Shown piece by piece: positions 7,250-21,306 of a DNA stretch of 64,000 nucleotides. Numbering within the stretch: position 1 is the first letter of the stretch; the number at the start of each line of letters is the position of its first letter. The notes beneath the pieces are model-generated. The model was not told the DNA's origin. It ran no database searches and saw nothing but the letters and a program-made list of their open reading frames with translations. Position numbers and translations under genes: made by a program. Source of the DNA: Massilia sp. (GTDB taxonomy: Bacteria; Pseudomonadota; Gammaproteobacteria; Burkholderiales; Burkholderiaceae_D); contig NZ_JBKBOV010000025.1 in the NCBI RefSeq assembly GCF_046293535.1, positions 6,588 through 70,587 of the forward strand, in the 5' to 3' direction.

Positions 7250-8206
7250 TCAATCAAAGCGGCCGTGGCGCTTGAACTGCTCGGTGGCGTTCACCAGCGC
7301 GCGGGCGATGCCGGTCTCGAGGGCGCCGTGGCCGCCGTCCGGAATCATGTGCAGTTTCGCGCCCGGCCAGGCCTGGTGCAGGCGCCAGGCCGACAGCGGC
7401 GGGCAGATCACGTCGTAGCGGCCCTGCACGATGGAGGCCGGCAGGTGGGCAATGCGGCCAATGTCGCGCACCAGCTGGTCTTCTTCGAGAAAAGCGCCGT
7501 GCAGCATGTAGTGCGACTCCAGGCGGCCGACGCCGAGGTCGAGCGCATCCGACGAAGGCTCGTCCGGCTGCGGCAGCAAGAACACGCGCCGGCCTTCGAA
7601 GCGGCTCCAGGCGCGCGCGGCCGGCCAGTAGACGGCGGGATCGTGGCACAGCAGGCGTTCGCAATAAGCCTTGAGCAGGTCGCCTCGCTCGGCCTGCGGG
7701 ATCGGCGCCACGAATTCCTCGTACAGCTCGGGATAGAACCACTTGACCCCGTTGATGAACCAGTCGACTTCGGCCTTCGTGCACAGGAAGATCCCGCGCA
7801 GCACGAAGCCGAGGCAGCGCTCCGGGTGGGCCTGGCCATAGGCCAGCGCCAGGGTCGAGCCCCAGGAGCCGCCGAACACCAGCCACTGCTTGACGCCGAA
7901 CATCTGCCGCAGGCGCTCGATGTCGTCGATCAGGAGCTGGGTCGTGTTGTTGCGCCATTCGCCCAGCGGCGTCGACTTGCCGGCCCCGCGCTGATCGAAC
8001 AGGATCACGCGGTAGGCGCTCGGGTCGAAGAAGCGGCGGTGCTGCGGCGACAGGCCCGCGCCCGGCCCGCCGTGCAGGAACAGCACCGGGATGCCGTTGG
8101 GGTTGCCGACTTCTTCCCAGTAGATCGTGTGCAGCTCGTCGACGGCGAGCATGCCGTGGCGGATGGGCTGGATCGGCGGGAACAGGGACGGCGGTGTGGC
8201 AGGCAT
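7250..8206 (-). CDS. pip: prolyl aminopeptidase (proline iminopeptidase)
   Basis: LHGGPG, FDQRGAGKS, FGGSWGSTL nucleophile motif. Confidence 0.93.
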   Translation of the reverse strand: MPATPPSLFPPIQPIRHGMLAVDELHTIYWEEVGNPNGIPVLFLHGGPGAGLSPQHRRFFDPSAYRVILFDQRGAGKSTPLGEWRNNTTQLLIDDIERLRQMFGVKQWLVFGGSWGSTLALAYGQAHPERCLGFVLRGIFLCTKAEVDWFINGVKWFYPELYEEFVAPIPQAERGDLLKAYCERLLCHDPAVYWPAARAWSRFEGRRVFLLPQPDEPSSDALDLGVGRLESHYMLHGAFLEEDQLVRDIGRIAHLPASIVQGRYDVICPPLSAWRLHQAWPGAKLHMIPDGGHGALETGIARALVNATEQFKRHGRFD

Positions 8207-8260
8207 GGGACTCGGCTCTCTCGGCGGGTGGAAACCGATTGTAGCGTAGAGCCTATTCTT

Positions 8261-9583
8261 TCAGAAGAAGGTGGTCAGCGCCTCGCGCACGTTGTAGGCG
8301 TCGTCCACCGCCAGCATGACTTGCCACTTGTCGAAAGTGGTGCACGGGTGCGAGATGCCGCAGCCGACCAGGTCGCCCACCTGCAGATTGTCGCGAATGT
8401 CTCCCTCCGGCAGCGCCAGGTAGGCATGCTGGTCGTTCATCTTGAAGATCGTGCAGCCGGGTGGCAGCGCTGCGGGCGCCGCCGCCTCGCTGCCCGGACG
8501 GTGGGTGAACAGCGGCGTCGGCAGCGCTTCGTCGTAGGAGGCGTCGCGCTTGCCCATGGTGAGGATGGCCAGGCCCGGTTCGGGGCGCGACTGCACGCTG
8601 CTCCATACTTCCAGCGCCGGGCGCAATCCTTCCACGGTGTGCGCTTCGCGCGCATCGAGCTGGGCCAGCAGGCGCTGGTAGGAACCGTGGTCGCTGGTGA
8701 GGTAGCAGCCGCTGCGCAGCACGGGGCGCACCGGGCGCGACAGGCCTTCCATGCCCGCGAACCCGCGCGCCACCAGGTCGAAATAGGACGAGCCGCCGGC
8801 CGAAATCAGGATCTCGGCAGCGCCGAACAGGCCCTCGCCATCCGCCGTTTCCACCAGGTCCACCAGCTCGGCCAGGAAGGCTTTCACGGCGCGCAGGTCG
8901 GCATCGCGGTCGTCGCTGACCAAGAGGCCTTCGTAGCCTTCGAAGCCCGCCAGGGTCAGGCCATCGGCAGCGGCAATGGCGCGTGCGACCACCATCGCTT
9001 CTTCGCTCGTCCGGCAGCCGGCGCGCTTGCCGCCCAAGCCGAGTTCGACCAGCACCGGCAGGGGACGGGCCAGGCCGCGCGCGCTCATCGCCGTCGAGAG
9101 GCGCGCCACGCCCTCGATCGAGTCGGCCAGCACGAAGCATTCGAAATCGGGGTCCTCATGCAGCAGCGCCAATACCGCCTCGATGTCGGCGCGCGCCACC
9201 AGCTGGTTGGCCAGCAGCACGCGGCGCACGTTGAAGCGGTGCGCCACCTGCACCTGCGTGGCGCTGGCCAGCGTGATGCCCCAAGCGCCGTTGGCCAGCT
9301 GGGCCGCGAACAGCTGCGGGCTCATCGTGGTCTTGCCGTGCGGCGCCAGCGTGACACCGTGGCGCGCGCAGAAGTCGCGCATCCAGGCCAGGTTGTGCTG
9401 GAGCGCCGACACCTTGAGCACGGCGACCGGGAAAGAGGTGTCGCCGCGCAGCACGTTCCAGCCCTGCACGCCGATCGCGCCCTGGCGCAACGGCTCTGTC
9501 AATGGCAAGCCCTTGGTACCGGGTAGCAAGAATTGTTCGTCGAGGCTGGACAGAGCGAGGCCGTCGCGGGGCAAGGTGTGCAT
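8261..9583 (-). CDS. PLP-dependent amino acid deaminase (D-serine dehydratase/D-threonine aldolase-like, alanine racemase fold)
   Basis: LAPHGKTTMSP PLP-lysine motif, SAGGSSYFD, LRSGCY, GISHPCTTFDKW. Confidence 0.82.
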   Translation of the reverse strand: MHTLPRDGLALSSLDEQFLLPGTKGLPLTEPLRQGAIGVQGWNVLRGDTSFPVAVLKVSALQHNLAWMRDFCARHGVTLAPHGKTTMSPQLFAAQLANGAWGITLASATQVQVAHRFNVRRVLLANQLVARADIEAVLALLHEDPDFECFVLADSIEGVARLSTAMSARGLARPLPVLVELGLGGKRAGCRTSEEAMVVARAIAAADGLTLAGFEGYEGLLVSDDRDADLRAVKAFLAELVDLVETADGEGLFGAAEILISAGGSSYFDLVARGFAGMEGLSRPVRPVLRSGCYLTSDHGSYQRLLAQLDAREAHTVEGLRPALEVWSSVQSRPEPGLAILTMGKRDASYDEALPTPLFTHRPGSEAAAPAALPPGCTIFKMNDQHAYLALPEGDIRDNLQVGDLVGCGISHPCTTFDKWQVMLAVDDAYNVREALTTFF

Positions 9584-9874
9584 GAGAATCCGTTAATTCA
9601 ATAAAAGCGCTTGTCGGTTTAGTGTTAATTGCATAATTAAGAGAAAGTCTTGTTTACAAGCGATTTGCGATTACGGCAGTGTTTGATCTACTCGGCTTCT
9701 GCACACTATAAGATCATTTCTCTTTGAATTTTCTCAATATTTAAATCAACAAAAAGTTGCACTCCATCAATATAGCGATTAGATAAAATTTTATACTAGA
9801 AACTGCCAACTGACCATCTACTGATGGCAGGTCACATTGGCGCAAAATTTTAACCACTTCAAACGGAGCATAAA

Positions 9875-10054
9875 ATGCAAAATTTAAGTTCTTCTGAAAT
9901 TGATAAAATCGGCGGTGGCTATTTGCACTTGACAGATGTCGATGCATTTTTGAAATTGAATAATAATTTCAAGGGGGGCATTTTGCATGTTACACCAAAC
10001 CCTCCAGTCCGTAAGGAAAGAAATTTTCCGACATCACCAGCATTACTAGATTGA
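9875..10054 (+). CDS. double-glycine-leader peptide precursor 1 (59 aa; not in ORF track)
   Basis: Manual translation MQNLSSSEIDKIGGG/YLHLTDVDAFLKLNNNFKGGILHVTPNPPVRKERNFPTSPALLD; GGAG RBS; leader fits LSxxELxxIxGG; terminator follows. Confidence 0.7.
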   Translation: MQNLSSSEIDKIGGGYLHLTDVDAFLKLNNNFKGGILHVTPNPPVRKERNFPTSPALLD

Positions 10055-10072
10055 CTAAAGAGTGAAATCGGG

Positions 10073-10100
10073 TTGCGGTTGCTACCCAACCGCAATTTTT
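10073..10100 (+). terminator. Rho-independent terminator after precursor 1
   Basis: TTGCGGTTG-ctacc-CAACCGCAA 9-bp stem followed by TTTTT. Confidence 0.7.
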
Positions 10101-10235
10101 AAAGTTTTTGGAGAATTCCTTGAATGGAATTTTCATATAAATCCTAATAATCTAGAATCTACTTAGAGCTTTTATTCATTTGGGCAGTGCCTGGAGTAGT
10201 GAGATCATATCCTTCTGCGGCAGACCGTTGCCAAA

Positions 10236-10480
10236 CTATTGAGTCCGTTCGATCCTGATGGGCTTATCGAATGATTCTGGCCGTTCCTGCTTCCATTCCT
10301 TGAGTTCAAGAATAGGCTTTTTAAGGTCGATTACATGTTACAAATCATAGTAATTGTACGACTTCAATAGTTCACCAACATGGGCTGCAGGTTGTCCCGT
10401 TCTCGAAGCAGGTCTAGTACAGCAGGTCGCATATGCGAAACGTTGAAGAGAGCTCGTTTAGTCCCGCATGTTGCGCCGTT
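10236..10480 (-). pseudogene. possible heavily decayed IS481-like transposase C-terminal remnant
   Basis: Broken frames give RICDLLY*TCFENG and LLKSYNYYDL*HVIDLKKPILELKEWKQERPESFDKP, reminiscent from memory of IS481-family C-termini; weak. Confidence 0.25.
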
Positions 10481-10984
10481 TCACAGCGTTCGCTAATGTA
10501 ATCATATAGGTCTGACGCTTAATGATTAGCCGCGCCAAATCTTGGTGTCTGCCAAACTCTCGGGTACTACGAACTTGCGCGTGACATTATGAACTCATGC
10601 TGAAAACTGCTCTTGATGCGTTTGATGCCGCGTCTATTAACCCAATAAAGTCTTTGCGTGCAAAAAGCCAGTTACAGTAAGTTGAATTAGCACGCGAAAC
10701 AAATAATCTAATAGGTGAGCTTGCTCGTCAAGAATGTCCAGTCTTCAGCGGATACCTATCCGTTGCTGTTTTCCGCATCCAAATACAACTTTTTGTCAAT
10801 GCTTACCAAGTCTGAAGGAAAGCCTGTCATGTGCATTGATCACATGATTTGAGCCACGTCATAATAAATACTTGATTAGACAGGAGCAATGCTAACTCGA
10901 TAGATTGTTCTTTCGCAGAACGCTAACGCATATTGGAGCATGTAAAGTTGGGCTTCACATAAATTTGCATAGCGGATACATATA

Positions 10985-11029
10985 TTGCGCAACTGCAATA
11001 CCCTGTTATAAATTAGTATTATTATTATC
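10985..11029 (+). promoter_or_regulatory. candidate sigma70 extended -10 promoter for precursor 2, overlapped by a Fur-box-like 19-mer
   Basis: TTGCGC-16 nt-TATAAA with TG at the extended -10 position; AATTAGTATTATTATTATC (11011-11029) matches 13/19 of GATAATGATAATCATTATC. Confidence 0.35.
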
Positions 11030-11095
11030 TCAGCCGCGAATTTTATTGTTTGTCGGCTTTAGCAACCTCCCTACCAAATCGATGGAGAAATTAAA

Positions 11096-11317
11096 ATGCA
11101 AGTACTTAATGTTGAAGAAATCCAAGAAGTTTCTGGTGGTGTCCAGGATAAAGTCGTACCAGCTGCGTTTATTTCTGCAGGCGGATACCTTGGCAGTTAT
11201 CTCTCAGCAGCGCGCTTTGGTGCCACACTTGGGGCAGCAGCTGGGCCGATTGGCGCTATCGTTGGCGGCGTAGCTGCCGGCGTGTTCGTCTATTATTACT
11301 ACGATCAAAAGCGCTGA
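11096..11317 (+). CDS. class II microcin/bacteriocin-like precursor 2 (73 aa, GG leader, glycine-zipper core)
   Basis: Leader MQVLNVEEIQEVSGG (15 aa, ColV-like), Gly/Ala-rich hydrophobic core GATLGAAAGPIGAIVGGVAAG, GGAG RBS, upstream of a PCAT exporter. Confidence 0.85.
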   Translation: MQVLNVEEIQEVSGGVQDKVVPAAFISAGGYLGSYLSAARFGATLGAAAGPIGAIVGGVAAGVFVYYYYDQKR

Positions 11318-11395
11318 CCGAGAGCCGATTTAGGGCTGCGGTTAACTGAGGAGTCGGCTTAGTGTCGACTCTTCTTTCAATACGGTGAACTAATC

Positions 11396-11890
11396 ATGAC
11401 AAACTTAAAAGAAATTAATTCCATATCAAAAACCTACTTCCCACTTCCATTGTGGCGCTATATTTTAATTTTCCAATCTTGGCAACAGTTACTATCTTGG
11501 ATGGTTATTGTTTCAGCAACTGCGTTTTCGGTCTACTTTTTGCTAAATATTCTCGATCCTAGGTCTGTACCAATCGAAGCAATTTTGTTGGGTGTAGCTT
11601 TTGGATCTATGTTCTCAGTTATTATGGTTATTCCTGTGGAAATTCATTTCAAAGGTAAAACTAATCGCCTCACATACATTCTAGTTGAAAAGCTTTATAG
11701 CGTAGGCTACATTCAAGATTCACAGGCAGGAGAAATTACCACATTCAAACAAAAATTCTCTTCTCGGTTAAAATGGACCGAAGGAAATGTTGTAATTAAA
11801 AAACTTGATCATGAAATCGTAGTGACTGGAGGCTGGTTTATTTTGGGAAACTTACGTCGCGCTATAAAAATATCCTATTTTAAAGATTAA
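11396..11890 (+). CDS. 2-TM membrane protein, candidate immunity protein
   Basis: 164 aa, very AT-rich, two hydrophobic segments, directly downstream of precursor 2. Confidence 0.6.
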   Translation: MTNLKEINSISKTYFPLPLWRYILIFQSWQQLLSWMVIVSATAFSVYFLLNILDPRSVPIEAILLGVAFGSMFSVIMVIPVEIHFKGKTNRLTYILVEKLYSVGYIQDSQAGEITTFKQKFSSRLKWTEGNVVIKKLDHEIVVTGGWFILGNLRRAIKISYFKD

Positions 11891-12012
11891 CCTTTTATTT
11901 GTTACTTGATAAAAATATAATATATTAGCTTTATATAACGATATTCGACCTTTTTTAATTATTTGTCACAATGAGAATCCGGCAGCCAGCTTAAAAAGTA
12001 AGGAGAGATAAC

Positions 12013-13347
12013 TTGCGCGACGCCGACATCACTTCAGAAAAAACTCGGAAGAGCCTTCTCCCCGATCAAACTTCGGAATCCCCACCAAGAAGTTTGTTTC
12101 GTCAGCAAGCTATTGAGCATAGCAAGGTACGCCAATACGGAACGGTCATAGTAACCCGTCCTGTTAGCCATATAGTTCTTACTTTTATATCTATTTTCCT
12201 TGCTCTCCTGCTCATCTTGTTCTTCCTCTTTTTCGAAACAACTCGTAAAGTAATAATCCATGGCATGTTAGTCCCTACGGCAGGGGTAATCAGAGTTTTT
12301 CCTAATCAAGCGGGTATCATCAAGGAGGTCCGTATCAAGGAAGGCCAATTCGTGCGTGAAGGTGATATCCTTTTCATTGTCTCCAGTGAGCGTAGCAATG
12401 CCGAAGCTAGCTCTACCGAAGCCTTGATTTCTGACTTACTAATGCGACGACGCGAAAGCTTCCAAGCTGAGCTGCTCCAAGCTAAGGTGCAGGTCGGACA
12501 GCGCCGCGCGGCTCTTCGGCAGCGTACACATGATCTCCAAGAAGAACTCAAGCGACTTGAAACCCAGGCGCATATTCAGAAGCAGCGCATCGCCTTAACC
12601 GAGCAGGCAGTGGCGCGTTTTACGCAATTGAAGGCGACCAATTACATATCAGCAGCGCAACTGCAAGAGCGCGAAGCCGAGTTACTCGACCAGCACCAGC
12701 GCCTGTTCGAGATTGAGCGCATTCGCTCTAGCACCCAACGCGACCTAGCCAGCACTCAGGCGGAAGAACTTGATGTCGCAGTGCAGGCCCTGCGCGACGA
12801 AAACGTTCTCCGCCGCAATGCTTCCACGCTCGAACAGGATCTGACCGAGAACGAGGCGCGACGCGAAGTCTCAATACGGGCGCGCCAGAGCGGAACAGTT
12901 ACGGCAATAGCCGCCAATCTCGGCCAAACCGTCGGTATTTCCACTGCTCTAGGATCGATCCTGCCTGAGGGAAACAAGCTGGAAGCGGAAATGTATGTGC
13001 CATCGCGCGCAGTCGGCTTTATCAAACCAAGAATAACGGCCCTGCTGCGCTACCAGGCTTTCCCATATCAGAAATTTGGCCAGCATACCGCACGCGTGCG
13101 CGAAGTAGCCACGACCTCGGTGCGGCCCGAGGAACTCCCAACTTCAGCTGCGACGTTGCCGGGCGCTGCCCAATCCGAGCCGGTATATCGTGTACGGCTC
13201 GAGCTCGACCAGCAAACTGTGCGCGCGTACGGGACTGCGATGCCGCTACGTTCTGGCATGCTAGTCGATGCCAGCATCATGCTCGAACGCCGCAAGCTCT
13301 ACGAATGGGTGCTGGAACCATTGTTCAGTATTTCGGGCCGATTGTAA
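12013..13347 (+). CDS. HlyD-family membrane fusion protein (CvaA/MchE-type bacteriocin secretion adaptor)
   Basis: TTG start with AAGGAG RBS; LFRQQAI, single TM, long coiled coil, QAFPYQKFG, LRSGM..DASIMLERRKLYEW. Confidence 0.92.
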   Translation: MRDADITSEKTRKSLLPDQTSESPPRSLFRQQAIEHSKVRQYGTVIVTRPVSHIVLTFISIFLALLLILFFLFFETTRKVIIHGMLVPTAGVIRVFPNQAGIIKEVRIKEGQFVREGDILFIVSSERSNAEASSTEALISDLLMRRRESFQAELLQAKVQVGQRRAALRQRTHDLQEELKRLETQAHIQKQRIALTEQAVARFTQLKATNYISAAQLQEREAELLDQHQRLFEIERIRSSTQRDLASTQAEELDVAVQALRDENVLRRNASTLEQDLTENEARREVSIRARQSGTVTAIAANLGQTVGISTALGSILPEGNKLEAEMYVPSRAVGFIKPRITALLRYQAFPYQKFGQHTARVREVATTSVRPEELPTSAATLPGAAQSEPVYRVRLELDQQTVRAYGTAMPLRSGMLVDASIMLERRKLYEWVLEPLFSISGRL

Positions 13348-13424
13348 GCGGGCAAAGCTCGTTCCCATAAACTAGTGGCGGTAATGAGTTTTTACGGCCA
13401 GCTCATCCTGATAATAGTTAAATT

Positions 13425-15569
13425 ATGCTATTTCCCATTCTTTCCCAGCTCACGTTCTTGAACCGCCGTAGGCTACCCGTTATGCTGCAGACCGAAGGGG
13501 CAGAATGTGGCTTGGCATGCTTGGCAATGGTCGCCAGTTATTGGGGCCATCGAATAGATATTCCAAGCATGCGTCGCCGCTTCTCGGTATCGATGAAGGG
13601 CGTTAACCTGAAGGGCATGATGGCGATGGCAAACGGCCTGTCCCTGCAGACCCGCCCGCTCAAGTTGGACCTTCAGCACTTGCCTGAATTGAAGTTACCC
13701 TGTGTAACGCACTGGGACCTGAACCACTTTGTCGTGCTCAAGTCAGTCTCGGCAAAGCATGTCGTCGTACATGATCCAAGTATCGGCGAACGGCGTATGC
13801 CACTCGAAGAATTTGCCAAGCACTTTACCGGTATCGCGCTCGAGCTGACACCGAGTGCACAGTTCGAGGCCAAGGAAGAACGTCAGCAATTTTCTCTGTT
13901 CTCGTTGATGGGAAATGTGGTCGGTCTGCGCCGCAGCTTGCTCCAAGTGCTGGCGCTCGGTCTGGCCCTTCAGATCTGCGCCCTGATCGCGCCCTTCTAT
14001 ATGCAGTGGATTGTCGACGAAGCCCTGCTGGCGTCGGACCGCGACCTGATCAAGGTGCTTGGCTGCGGCTTCTTGCTCCTGGTACTGCTTCAGACCACAA
14101 TCGGCGCCGTCCGCTCATGGGTTACCACCGTGCTAGCCACCAGCCTGAACCTACAATGGCTGGGCAACGCCTTTGCCCATCTAATAAAGCTACCATTGCC
14201 CTACTTCGAGAAGCGCCATACCGGCGACATCGTCTCACGCTTCGGTTCAATCCAGCAGATTCAGACGAGCCTAACGACACAGTTTGTCGAAGGCATCATC
14301 GACGGTGTACTGGTGCTGGGCACCCTGATCATGATGCTGCTATATAGCCCCAAGTTGGCTGCAGTGGCCTGCGTTGCAGTACTGTTGTACGCGCTACTGC
14401 GTTTGGCAATGTTCCGCCCACTGCGCGATGCGAACGCCGAAGAGATCATCCATACCGCGAAACAGCAAAGCCACTTCATGGAAACTGTGCGCGGTATGCA
14501 AAGTATTCGCCTGTTCGGGCGCAGCGAAGAGCGTCGTTCAGCCTGGATAAACTCGCTGACCGACGAGTTCAACGCTCAGTTGCGTATCGCGAGGCTGGCC
14601 GTCTCGTACCAGACATCCAATACCCTGCTATTCAATGGGGAGCGCGTGATCGTGATCTGGCTTGCAGCCCTCTCCGTGCTCAGTAATGAATTCTCGGTCG
14701 GAATGGTATTTGCATTTATTAGCTACAAGGATCAGTTTAGCCAGCGAATGGCCAGTCTGATCGACAAACTGTTCGAATTACGGATGATGCGCTTGCATGG
14801 CGAGCGCGTGGCCGATATCGTGCTGGCCGAAGCAGAACCGGACGATGACGTCGTCGAAGTCGACGCAAACCAGATCATGCCTTCAATCGAGATCAAAAAC
14901 CTGAGTTTCCGTTATTCCGACAGCGAGCCCGAAGTCATCCGTGAACTCAACCTGAGCATCCCCGCTGGGCAATGTGTGGCAATTACTGGACCTTCTGGCT
15001 GCGGGAAGACGACATTGATGAAATTGCTGCTGGGCCTGCTCGTACCAACCGGAGGTGAAATTCGCATCGGGGGAGTACCCTTGGGTACACTCGGCCTGTC
15101 GAACTATCGCCGACTGCTAGGCACGGTGATGCAGGATGATACATTGTTTGCCGGATCGATCTCAGACAACATTAGTTTTTTCGATCCCCTGATCGACATG
15201 CAACGCGTCCATGTGTGCGCTGAACTAGCCGCCATCGAGCCTGAGATCTCTACCATGCCGATGGCCTTCAACACCCTGGTCGGCGATATCGGCACCGGCC
15301 TGTCGGGCGGACAGCAGCAGCGCGTCCTTTTGGCACGTGCACTGTACAAGAACCCGAAAATCTTGGTGCTTGACGAAGCGACCAGCCACTTGGACGTGTG
15401 GAATGAACAGGCTGTCAACGCAGCCATCCAGAAGATTCCACTTACCCGAATTATCGTCGCGCACCGTCCAGAAACGATCCAAATGGCAGAGCGTGTGATC
15501 GTCCTGCATAACGGTCAAGTTGCCCAAGATGTGACTAAGTCGACTCCCGAAGATAAGCAGGCAGCTTGA
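13425..15569 (+). CDS. peptidase-containing ABC transporter (C39 peptidase + TMD + NBD; CvaB/MchF-type)
   Basis: QTEGAECGLACLAM (catalytic Cys), HWDLNHFVVL (His), Walker A GPSGCGKT, LSGGQQQR, ILVLDEATSHLD all intact. Confidence 0.95.
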   Translation: MLFPILSQLTFLNRRRLPVMLQTEGAECGLACLAMVASYWGHRIDIPSMRRRFSVSMKGVNLKGMMAMANGLSLQTRPLKLDLQHLPELKLPCVTHWDLNHFVVLKSVSAKHVVVHDPSIGERRMPLEEFAKHFTGIALELTPSAQFEAKEERQQFSLFSLMGNVVGLRRSLLQVLALGLALQICALIAPFYMQWIVDEALLASDRDLIKVLGCGFLLLVLLQTTIGAVRSWVTTVLATSLNLQWLGNAFAHLIKLPLPYFEKRHTGDIVSRFGSIQQIQTSLTTQFVEGIIDGVLVLGTLIMMLLYSPKLAAVACVAVLLYALLRLAMFRPLRDANAEEIIHTAKQQSHFMETVRGMQSIRLFGRSEERRSAWINSLTDEFNAQLRIARLAVSYQTSNTLLFNGERVIVIWLAALSVLSNEFSVGMVFAFISYKDQFSQRMASLIDKLFELRMMRLHGERVADIVLAEAEPDDDVVEVDANQIMPSIEIKNLSFRYSDSEPEVIRELNLSIPAGQCVAITGPSGCGKTTLMKLLLGLLVPTGGEIRIGGVPLGTLGLSNYRRLLGTVMQDDTLFAGSISDNISFFDPLIDMQRVHVCAELAAIEPEISTMPMAFNTLVGDIGTGLSGGQQQRVLLARALYKNPKILVLDEATSHLDVWNEQAVNAAIQKIPLTRIIVAHRPETIQMAERVIVLHNGQVAQDVTKSTPEDKQAA

Positions 15570-15584
15570 CGAGGACAGTCTGCT

Positions 15585-15626
15585 AAAAAAAATGGCCCGG
15601 ACGATTACTCGTCCAGGCCAGCTTTT
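15585..15626. terminator. bidirectional terminator between the exporter and phbB
   Basis: A-tract, TGGCCCGGACGA-ttac-TCGTCCAGGCCA (1 mismatch), TTTT. Confidence 0.7.
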
Positions 15627-20616: not shown

Positions 20617-21306
20617 ATGAAGATTGCCGTTCTCGAACAAGACCGCAGCCAGGCAGAACTCATTTGCCAGGTGCTGACCGCCGCCGGCCATAGCTGCCAG
20701 CCGTACGACAGCGCCAAGGAATGCCTCGCGCAACTGCGCAAGGAAAATGCGGACATGCTGGTCATGGACTGGAACGTCCCCGACCTCGACGGCGCCGAAG
20801 TGCTGCGCCGCGCCAAGGAAAAGATGGCGGCCAGCGCACCGGTCATTTTCCTGGTCGGTAACAATGCCGAGGACGACATCATCGCCGGCGTCACTGCGGG
20901 CGCCGACGACTACCTGGTCAAGCCGCTGCGCCGCGGCGAGCTGGTGGCGCGCGTCTCGGCCCTGCTGCGCCGCGCCTATCCGTCGCAGAACAGCGCCGAG
21001 CAGCTGCAGTTCGGTCCCTTCACTTTCGAGACCCGCCCGGGGCGCCTGCTCAAGGACGGTTCGATCATCGACGTGACCCAGAAGGAATTCTCGCTGGCGC
21101 TGCTGTTCTTCCGTAACATTGGCCGCCCGCTGTCGCGCGCCTACATCCACGAATCGGTCTGGGTGCGCGATACCGACGTGCCTTCGCGCACCATGGACAC
21201 CCACGTCTCGCGCGTGCGCAACAAGCTCAGCCTGCGCCCGGAAAACGGCTTCCGCCTGGTGCCGGTCTACAGCTATGGCTACCGTCTGGAAAAACTGGGC
21301 GCCTGA
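20617..21306 (+). CDS. OmpR/PhoB-family response regulator (no adjacent kinase)
   Basis: REC domain (VMDW, GADDYLVKP) and winged HTH (RTMDTHVSRVRNKL, VYSYGYRL). Confidence 0.92.
   Translation: MKIAVLEQDRSQAELICQVLTAAGHSCQPYDSAKECLAQLRKENADMLVMDWNVPDLDGAEVLRRAKEKMAASAPVIFLVGNNAEDDIIAGVTAGADDYLVKPLRRGELVARVSALLRRAYPSQNSAEQLQFGPFTFETRPGRLLKDGSIIDVTQKEFSLALLFFRNIGRPLSRAYIHESVWVRDTDVPSRTMDTHVSRVRNKLSLRPENGFRLVPVYSYGYRLEKLGA

Follow-up and report, generated by a model that had tools for sequence, protein, structure and literature searches.

A conserved family of double-glycine-leader peptides at the head of a Massilia bacteriocin island: candidate secreted ligands

The window analyzed here is a 64,000-nucleotide stretch of a Massilia sp. 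genome. It contains a low-GC block from about 9590 to 15600, in which the GC content is 35-58% compared to 63-71% in the flanks. A 59-codon open reading frame (ORF) is located at the left edge of this block. The island contains two peptide genes and genes for a 164-aa membrane protein, an HlyD-family protein and an ABC exporter. On the left it is bordered by a core gene, and on the right phaB is the next gene beyond the exporter. The features of the locus are as follows.

8261-9583, minus strand: D-Ser-dehydratase-like core gene in the left flank
9757-9770, plus strand: CRP/FNR-type box TTGCACTCCATCAA (TTG-N8-CAA), centered at about -41 from the predicted transcription start; the regulator is putative
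9792-9797, plus strand: -10 element TATACT (TATACT, TATATT or TAAAAT in orthologous promoters)
9804-9841, plus strand: inverted repeat TGCCAA-N27-TTGGC in the 5' UTR, its sequence kept in most loci
9865-9868, plus strand: Shine-Dalgarno GGAG, 6 nt 5' of the ATG
9875-10054, plus strand: peptide precursor ORF, 59 aa (MQNLSSSEIDKIGGGYLHLTDVDAFLKLNNNFKGGILHVTPNPPVRKERNFPTSPALLD)
9875-9919, plus strand: double-glycine leader MQNLSSSEIDKIGGG, 15 aa, its pattern conserved across the family
9920-10054, plus strand: predicted 44-aa core (YLHL...FKGGILH...RKERNFP...LLD) with conserved motifs, and stop codon
10070-10098, plus strand: terminator hairpin followed by a T-tract
10264-10345, no strand: insertion-sequence-end remnant in a 1-kb spacer; the same sequence ends contigs L018 and L022
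11096-11317, plus strand: cargo toxin A ('precursor 2'), a 73-aa Gly/Ala-rich GG-leader peptide, 76% identical (tblastn) to its L028 counterpart
11396-11890, plus strand: 164-aa membrane protein, candidate toxin A immunity protein, which co-occurs with toxin A in L028 (60% identity)
12013-13347, plus strand: HlyD-family membrane-fusion protein, adjoining the exporter gene
13425-15569, plus strand: C39-peptidase ABC exporter (PCAT; PF03412, E = 1.8e-36)

The spacer between the two peptide genes (10055-11095) was searched for a decayed or immunity gene. The only parts it has in common with other loci are the insertion-sequence scrap and the toxin A promoter. The sequence of the remnant also ends the M. 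varians contig C152 (L018), where it cuts hlyD. In L028, a 75-aa basic ORF (MGKDFRHGSILQQRVL...) is called at 1280-1507, just upstream of toxin A. Its counterpart in the window, 10961-11089, shares 73% DNA identity with it and is probably promoter sequence, not a gene. Outside the island, 5 kb beyond its right end, an OmpR-type response regulator (20617-21306) is found together with minC and other core genes. No kinase was found beside it in the ORFs scanned, and there is no sign that it is connected with the island.

The 59-codon ORF is a genuine, conserved gene. About 15 homologues were found, every one on Massilia-type contigs. Massilia varians CCUG 35299, from the same genus, has a 49%-identical ORF in the same chromosomal place. 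The M. varians orthologue keeps the start, stop, ribosome-binding site (RBS), promoter blocks, hairpin and flank, and the indels are multiples of three. The M. varians island is damaged: the peptide gene is followed by an insertion sequence, and hlyD is truncated where the contig ends in an insertion-sequence terminus. The intact ORF there is therefore weak evidence by itself. Further relatives surfaced only with a profile of two sequences. A single-sequence search of a 5.8-billion-protein collection returned the query itself as the sole match. Searched against 1.84 billion proteins, the two-sequence profile picked up full-length relatives, about a dozen in all, with lengths of 58-79 aa and E values from 3e-8 to 7e-30; its other matches were spurious repeat proteins only. 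A second search added four further relatives.

In the family alignment, M1, L4, I9, G14, F32, G34, I36 and L37 are invariant, and E8 and G15 are at least 90% conserved. The conserved blocks are the leader, YLRL, FKGGILH, RKEKxFP and a C-terminal L[LR]D; an acidic linker varies in length from 9 to 17 residues. The first-pass annotation of this DNA had proposed conservation in relatives and dN/dS as a check on the gene. The homologues keep the start, stop, frame and RBS, and the peptide is under purifying selection, with dN/dS mostly near 0.1-0.3. Pairwise dN/dS in the peptide frame ranges from 0.07 to 0.6, comparable with the neighboring genes, and is 0.12 for the least saturated pair (dN 0.078, dS 0.67). 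Two antisense ORFs, 9741-9947 and 9919-10095, were considered as the true gene and rejected. Their similarity is an echo, their lengths vary by locus, and one of them is broken in L025.

The family is narrowly distributed. A profile search of a family-level sample found the peptide in 2 of 401 species. Scanning 185,579 species genomes with an FKGGILH DNA pattern identified M. varians only, and the same scan of JGI metagenome contigs found nothing. Searches of Pfam, NCBIfam and PDB sequences with the window precursor (P0001) produced no meaningful match, nor did a Pfam search with all 15 family members. In the literature collection searched, no relevant paper joined Massilia and microcin. These ~60-aa double-glycine-leader peptides are a previously undescribed, Massilia-restricted family, and the window ORF is its founding member.

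The leader has the features expected of an exporter substrate. With cleavage assumed after G15, positions -12, -11, -8, -7, -4, -2 and -1 are L, S, E, I, I, G and G, exactly as first annotated. The leader of the 73-aa neighbor (MQVLNVEEIQEVSGG, 11096-11317) is also 15 residues long, as had been noted. PCAT substrates are characterized by N-terminal leaders of about 15-25 aa that end in GG, GA or GS and have hydrophobic residues at -4, -7 and -12. MQNLSSSEIDKIGGG has L at -12 and I at both -7 and -4, and this holds family-wide. Of the 48,896 genomic ORFs that start with ATG and encode 30-120 aa, only two have a strict leader pattern, M-x2-L-x3-E-[IL]-x2-[IV]-x-G-G, indicating that the precursor leader is far above chance. 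These two ORFs are the 59-aa precursor and the neighboring toxin, and both adjoin the only C39-peptidase ABC gene in the genome. The best solved relative of this exporter is PCAT1 (4RY2, E = 6e-94), to which its catalytic Cys and His align. Together, the toxin-type leader, the sole C39-ABC gene with both catalytic residues, the purifying selection and the linkage give good, though indirect, support to the earlier proposal that the peptide is a second substrate of the same exporter. A leader of this type, linked to the one exporter of its kind in the genome, makes it natural to expect that the precursor is exported and cut after Gly15. The calculated monoisotopic mass of the predicted 44-aa product, Tyr16-Asp59, is 4,970.7 Da.

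The predicted core differs from the neighboring toxins in composition. It had been described as polar, near neutral and Pro-rich at the C-terminus. Our calculations agree, giving a GRAVY of -0.36, a net charge of +1 and all five Pro within the last 20 residues. Gly and Ala make up 9% of the core, compared to 38-46% of the neighboring toxins. The core contains no hydrophobic window, the maximum 15-residue hydropathy being 0.23. An AlphaFold2 prediction for the peptide, from the 15-sequence alignment, has a mean pLDDT of 53, suggesting that the 44-aa core is probably disordered.

The peptide gene has its own expression signals. The GGAG RBS of the first-pass annotation is present and invariant across seven orthologous loci aligned. 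The terminator assigned to the gene was recovered as a 12-bp hairpin followed by TTTTTAAAGTTTTT (-15 kcal/mol, z = -2.3). The seven loci folded all have a hairpin in this place, and the stem sequence differs among them. A consensus terminator scan did not list it, and the T-tracts that follow are weak in several loci. Upstream, TTG-N8-CAA is located 21-22 nt before the -10 element in all aligned peptide promoters, at 21 nt in eight of nine, and no good -35 element is found in them. The geometry of the box is that of activator-dependent CRP/FNR-family promoters, and the missing -35 element would fit such a promoter. The same box is located 21 nt before the -10 elements of toxins A (window 10985-11025) and F (L022 10787), and 20 nt before that of toxin C (L023 3518). 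No such box was found upstream of toxin B, D or E or of hlyD. A loose version occurs six times in the cargo region of the window, compared to 0.76 expected. The common box suggests that at least some toxins may be co-expressed with the peptide. A genome-wide search with an extended promoter pattern revealed no regulon. The predicted transcript leader of about 75 nt holds the TGCCAA...TTGGC repeat. Tested as an RNA structure, the repeat is conserved and has no covariation or compensatory changes; it is possibly an operator or other protein-binding site, or an RNA stem.

Nine loci with the peptide could be compared: the window, M. varians and seven metagenomic or assembly contigs (L022, L023, L025, L027, L028, L053 and L054). 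In all nine, the peptide gene comes first after the same D-Ser-dehydratase-like core gene, and a variable cassette comes next. The cassettes are as follows.

Cassette A (window and L028): Gly-rich YYYY peptide and 164-aa membrane protein
Cassette B (L025 and L027): two-Cys peptide and Rce1-like protease, on the opposite strand
Cassette C (L023): Ala/Gly-rich peptide and rhomboid
Cassette D (L053): further toxin and Rce1-like protein
Cassette E (M. varians and L054): peptide behind an insertion sequence
Cassette F (L022): another peptide

The hlyD or exporter gene is found downstream in the six loci whose contigs extend far enough. In M. varians the copy lies on another contig, and L022 and L054 end before these genes are reached. 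Compared to the window (tblastn), HlyD is 73-85% identical, and the exporter is 86-92% identical where it is full-length on the contig. Between the core gene and the cassettes, no ORF apart from that of the peptide is conserved. The earlier remark that no immunity gene is adjacent to the peptide gene extends to all nine loci, in which no conserved or membrane-type ORF accompanies the peptide. In L027, only about 180 nt separate the peptide gene from the next gene. The toxin/immunity cassettes that follow members of this one family are of at least six unrelated kinds. The peptide is therefore not a dedicated partner of precursor 2, and the suggestion that it serves as a second toxin component in that sense is not supported.

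The exporter has a wider distribution than the peptide. An orthologous exporter, 82-91% identical, is present in about 13 other Massilia species. Six-frame profile searches of 13 such loci, up to ~9 kb upstream of the exporter gene, did not find the family. Most of these sister loci are at the same site, some with ordinary GG toxins and two empty. The absence of the family from them indicates that the peptide is not needed for the island to work. In these species (L040-L052), the interval between the core gene and hlyD is a cargo hot-spot that ranges from ~430 bp to ~3.9 kb, with L045 and L049 representing the empty site of ~430 bp. Their cargo consists of differing GG-leader toxins and immunity-type genes (rhomboid, Rce1-like). 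The first cargo gene of L047 (G496), at position 467, encodes another GG-leader peptide that is polar and charged and belongs to a different family, MNELTNEELEIISGAG/KIAEVFDDLEYVVERADRLYDKAIKTTTNMMCRFTGKC.

The peptide alleles are much more diverged than the genes beside them. Between the window and M. varians, the core genes (7250-9583) have a dS of 0.16-0.23 and 93-97% protein identity, compared to a dN of 0.43 and a saturated dS (>1) for the peptide. Between the window and L022, dS is 0.17-0.28 for core genes and 1.35 for the peptide. Since the dS of the peptide greatly exceeds that of the flanking core genes, its alleles greatly predate the species split. Despite the age of the alleles, the peptide is under purifying selection. 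The sequence comparison indicates that recombination exchanges the left part of the island, as is usual for bacteriocin and pherotype loci. The hlyD gene is strongly diverged as well (dS 1.9 compared to L028), and the ABC gene is not.

We infer cleavage, export and an extracellular role of the peptide, and propose the following mechanism. The peptide gene would be transcribed alone from an activator-type promoter with a CRP/FNR-like box, and transcription would end at its own hairpin. The precursor would be recognized by the C39-ABC exporter of the island and cut after Gly15. The 44-aa (4.97 kDa), hydrophilic, unstructured peptide would then leave through an ABC-HlyD-TolC route. Outside the cell, it would probably bind a partner through the linear motifs YLRL, FKGGILH, RKEKxFP and the C-terminal L[LR]D, serving either as a ligand with a signal-like role or as an effector on organisms that do not produce it. 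That its target is intracellular is purely speculative.

On balance, we consider it likely that the peptide is a secreted extracellular ligand and a substrate of the exporter, with a signal-like role or an effect on non-producers, and is not a self-toxic membrane-active microcin. The core has no hydrophobic segment, the gene has no immunity partner, and the peptide is kept while the cassettes are swapped; in combination, these make a self-toxic membrane-active microcin most likely the wrong description. Verified immunity proteins of class II microcins are small membrane proteins encoded immediately adjacent to the microcin, and susceptible producers without an immunity protein are self-inhibited (PMC12219008). 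The lack of an immunity partner in nine loci thus argues against a self-toxic microcin. Several considerations count against the ligand reading: for GG-leader peptides beside such exporters in Proteobacteria the prior favors bacteriocins (PMC12219008), and an immunity gene may lie elsewhere in the genome. In addition, the island encodes no receptor or sensor gene, the family was not found in the 13 sister loci, and it is hard for a 5-kDa peptide to get back into a Gram-negative periplasm.

The strongest rival is an ordinary antibacterial toxin similar to class II microcins, taken up through a receptor and acting on a non-membrane target. The producer would be protected by a gene elsewhere, by the exporter itself or by a missing receptor. 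Many features of the locus are compatible with such a toxin: the gene is in a bacteriocin island with a toxin-type leader and a toxin-type promoter, its distribution is patchy and cargo-like (2 of 401 species in the family-level sample), its alleles are old and diverged like those of toxins (dS >1, compared to 0.16-0.28 in flanking core genes), and class II microcins are reported to be very diverse in sequence (PMC12219008). [quoted passage not shown] The core lacks a hydrophobic or Gly-rich segment. Moreover, the peptide is retained across at least six different toxin/immunity cassettes. We regard the toxin as a possible but unlikely explanation.

The peptide could also be a pheromone like ComC, BlpC and PlnA of Gram-positive bacteria, with a sensor encoded elsewhere that switches on the island promoters. 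An orphan GG peptide, a transporter and a swappable toxin/immunity region form the layout of streptococcal blp loci. The Massilia locus has the same arrangement, with the peptide gene at its head under its own promoter and terminator. The promoter motif common to the peptide and toxin genes, as well as the strong divergence of the alleles, which resembles that of pherotypes, would be consistent with such a signal. On the other hand, no histidine kinase or response regulator is found in the island or its immediate flanks, the nearest (20617-21306) being among core genes, and the common box resembles a CRP/FNR site rather than a response-regulator direct repeat. At 44 aa, the mature peptide would be roughly double the length of a typical pheromone, and it is missing from sister islands that have toxins. 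Simple quorum sensing is also awkward for a 5-kDa peptide because of the outer membrane barrier. A pheromone of this kind is rather improbable.

Still less probable is a double cleavage, after GGG15 and after an internal FKGG35, that would free the 24-aa, Pro-containing ILHVTPNPPVRKERNFPTSPALLD (2.71 kDa) as the active species. The residues after both sites are alike (GG/YLHLT and GG/ILHVT), FKGGILH is the most conserved block of the family, and several members have F or L at -4, -12 and -15 before the internal GG. A profile-profile alignment sets the two sites in register, though weakly (P = 0.046, probability 1%). Nearly all members have a polar residue at -7, the internal site reads GR in one of them (P0008), and in the window the spacing is shifted by one residue. 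Finally, it is very improbable that the ORF encodes a non-exported cytoplasmic protein, is a regulatory leader ORF whose translation or hairpin governs read-through into the cassette, or is decaying or a product of chance: a hairpin does closely follow the stop codon in all loci, with weak T-tracts in several, but no part of the sequence is better conserved than the leader features on which C39 recognition depends, purifying selection extends over its whole length, the spacer to the cassette varies by locus from 0.2 to 2 kb with the cassette sometimes on the opposite strand, and the family profile matches and the genome-wide rarity of the leader exclude a chance origin.

The exported ligand that we favor has similarities to several known systems. 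Like the class II microcins exported by CvaAB (MccV/CvaC), it has a small ribosomal precursor with a double-glycine leader of about 15 residues, a linked C39-peptidase ABC exporter with an HlyD-type adaptor, and a location in a low-GC toxin/immunity island of a Gram-negative bacterium. Unlike them, the Massilia peptide has no adjacent immunity gene in nine loci and is retained while the toxin cassettes change, and its core is hydrophilic, Gly/Ala-poor and predicted to be disordered, with no match to bacteriocin models in Pfam or NCBIfam. Two marks of a class II microcin are thus missing: an immunity gene beside the peptide gene, and a core that is hydrophobic or Gly-rich or matches a family model. 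With ComC, BlpC and PlnA of the com, blp and pln loci, it shares an orphan GG-leader peptide without immunity, located beside a processing exporter and a variable bacteriocin/immunity region, and strongly diverged alleles. It differs from them in having no linked two-component system, in its predicted length of 44 aa compared to ~17-27 aa, in its Gram-negative host with an outer membrane, and in being missing from toxin-bearing sister islands.

Non-bactericidal peptides with such leaders are known. RaxX of Xanthomonas, also a Gram-negative precursor of about 60 residues, is processed and secreted by a peptidase-containing ABC transporter, RaxB, and its product is a Pro-containing, non-bactericidal receptor ligand (PMC6637879; bioRxiv 10.1101/442517). 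A prominent Tyr is present in both; in the Massilia peptide, it is the first residue after the predicted cleavage site. However, the Massilia island has no gene for a tyrosyl-sulfotransferase (RaxST), and the PSY-like DY-PPPG motif is absent from the peptide. By eye, no sequence similarity was seen between the two. EbfG1-4 of Synechococcus elongatus, which are associated with PteB, are likewise small GG-motif proteins in a Gram-negative-type cell, and their role is extracellular and non-antibiotic (PMC4997328). No EbfG-like proteins were found among the family profile-search matches. Given RaxX and EbfG, the kind of peptide is not new; the family is.

It is possible, though unlikely, that a non-bactericidal secreted ligand is kept at the island head as a signal of the microcin island, sensed at the surface or by a distant sensor, or as an effector on other organisms. 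If true, the signal version could be the first double-glycine-type peptide signal tied to a Gram-negative microcin island. Double-glycine-leader peptides in Gram-negative bacteria are almost always read as microcins. The locus raises the question of whether such export systems also carry non-toxic cargo in Betaproteobacteria. The Massilia peptide is a clean candidate for this question because selection on it is purifying, it is hydrophilic and lacks an immunity partner, and it stays fixed amid cassette swaps, although the family is confined to a small Massilia lineage. The locus is also a natural series for the rebuilding of a bacteriocin island by recombination. Between the same two core genes, it ranges from the empty site through toxins only to the peptide with at least six cassette types.
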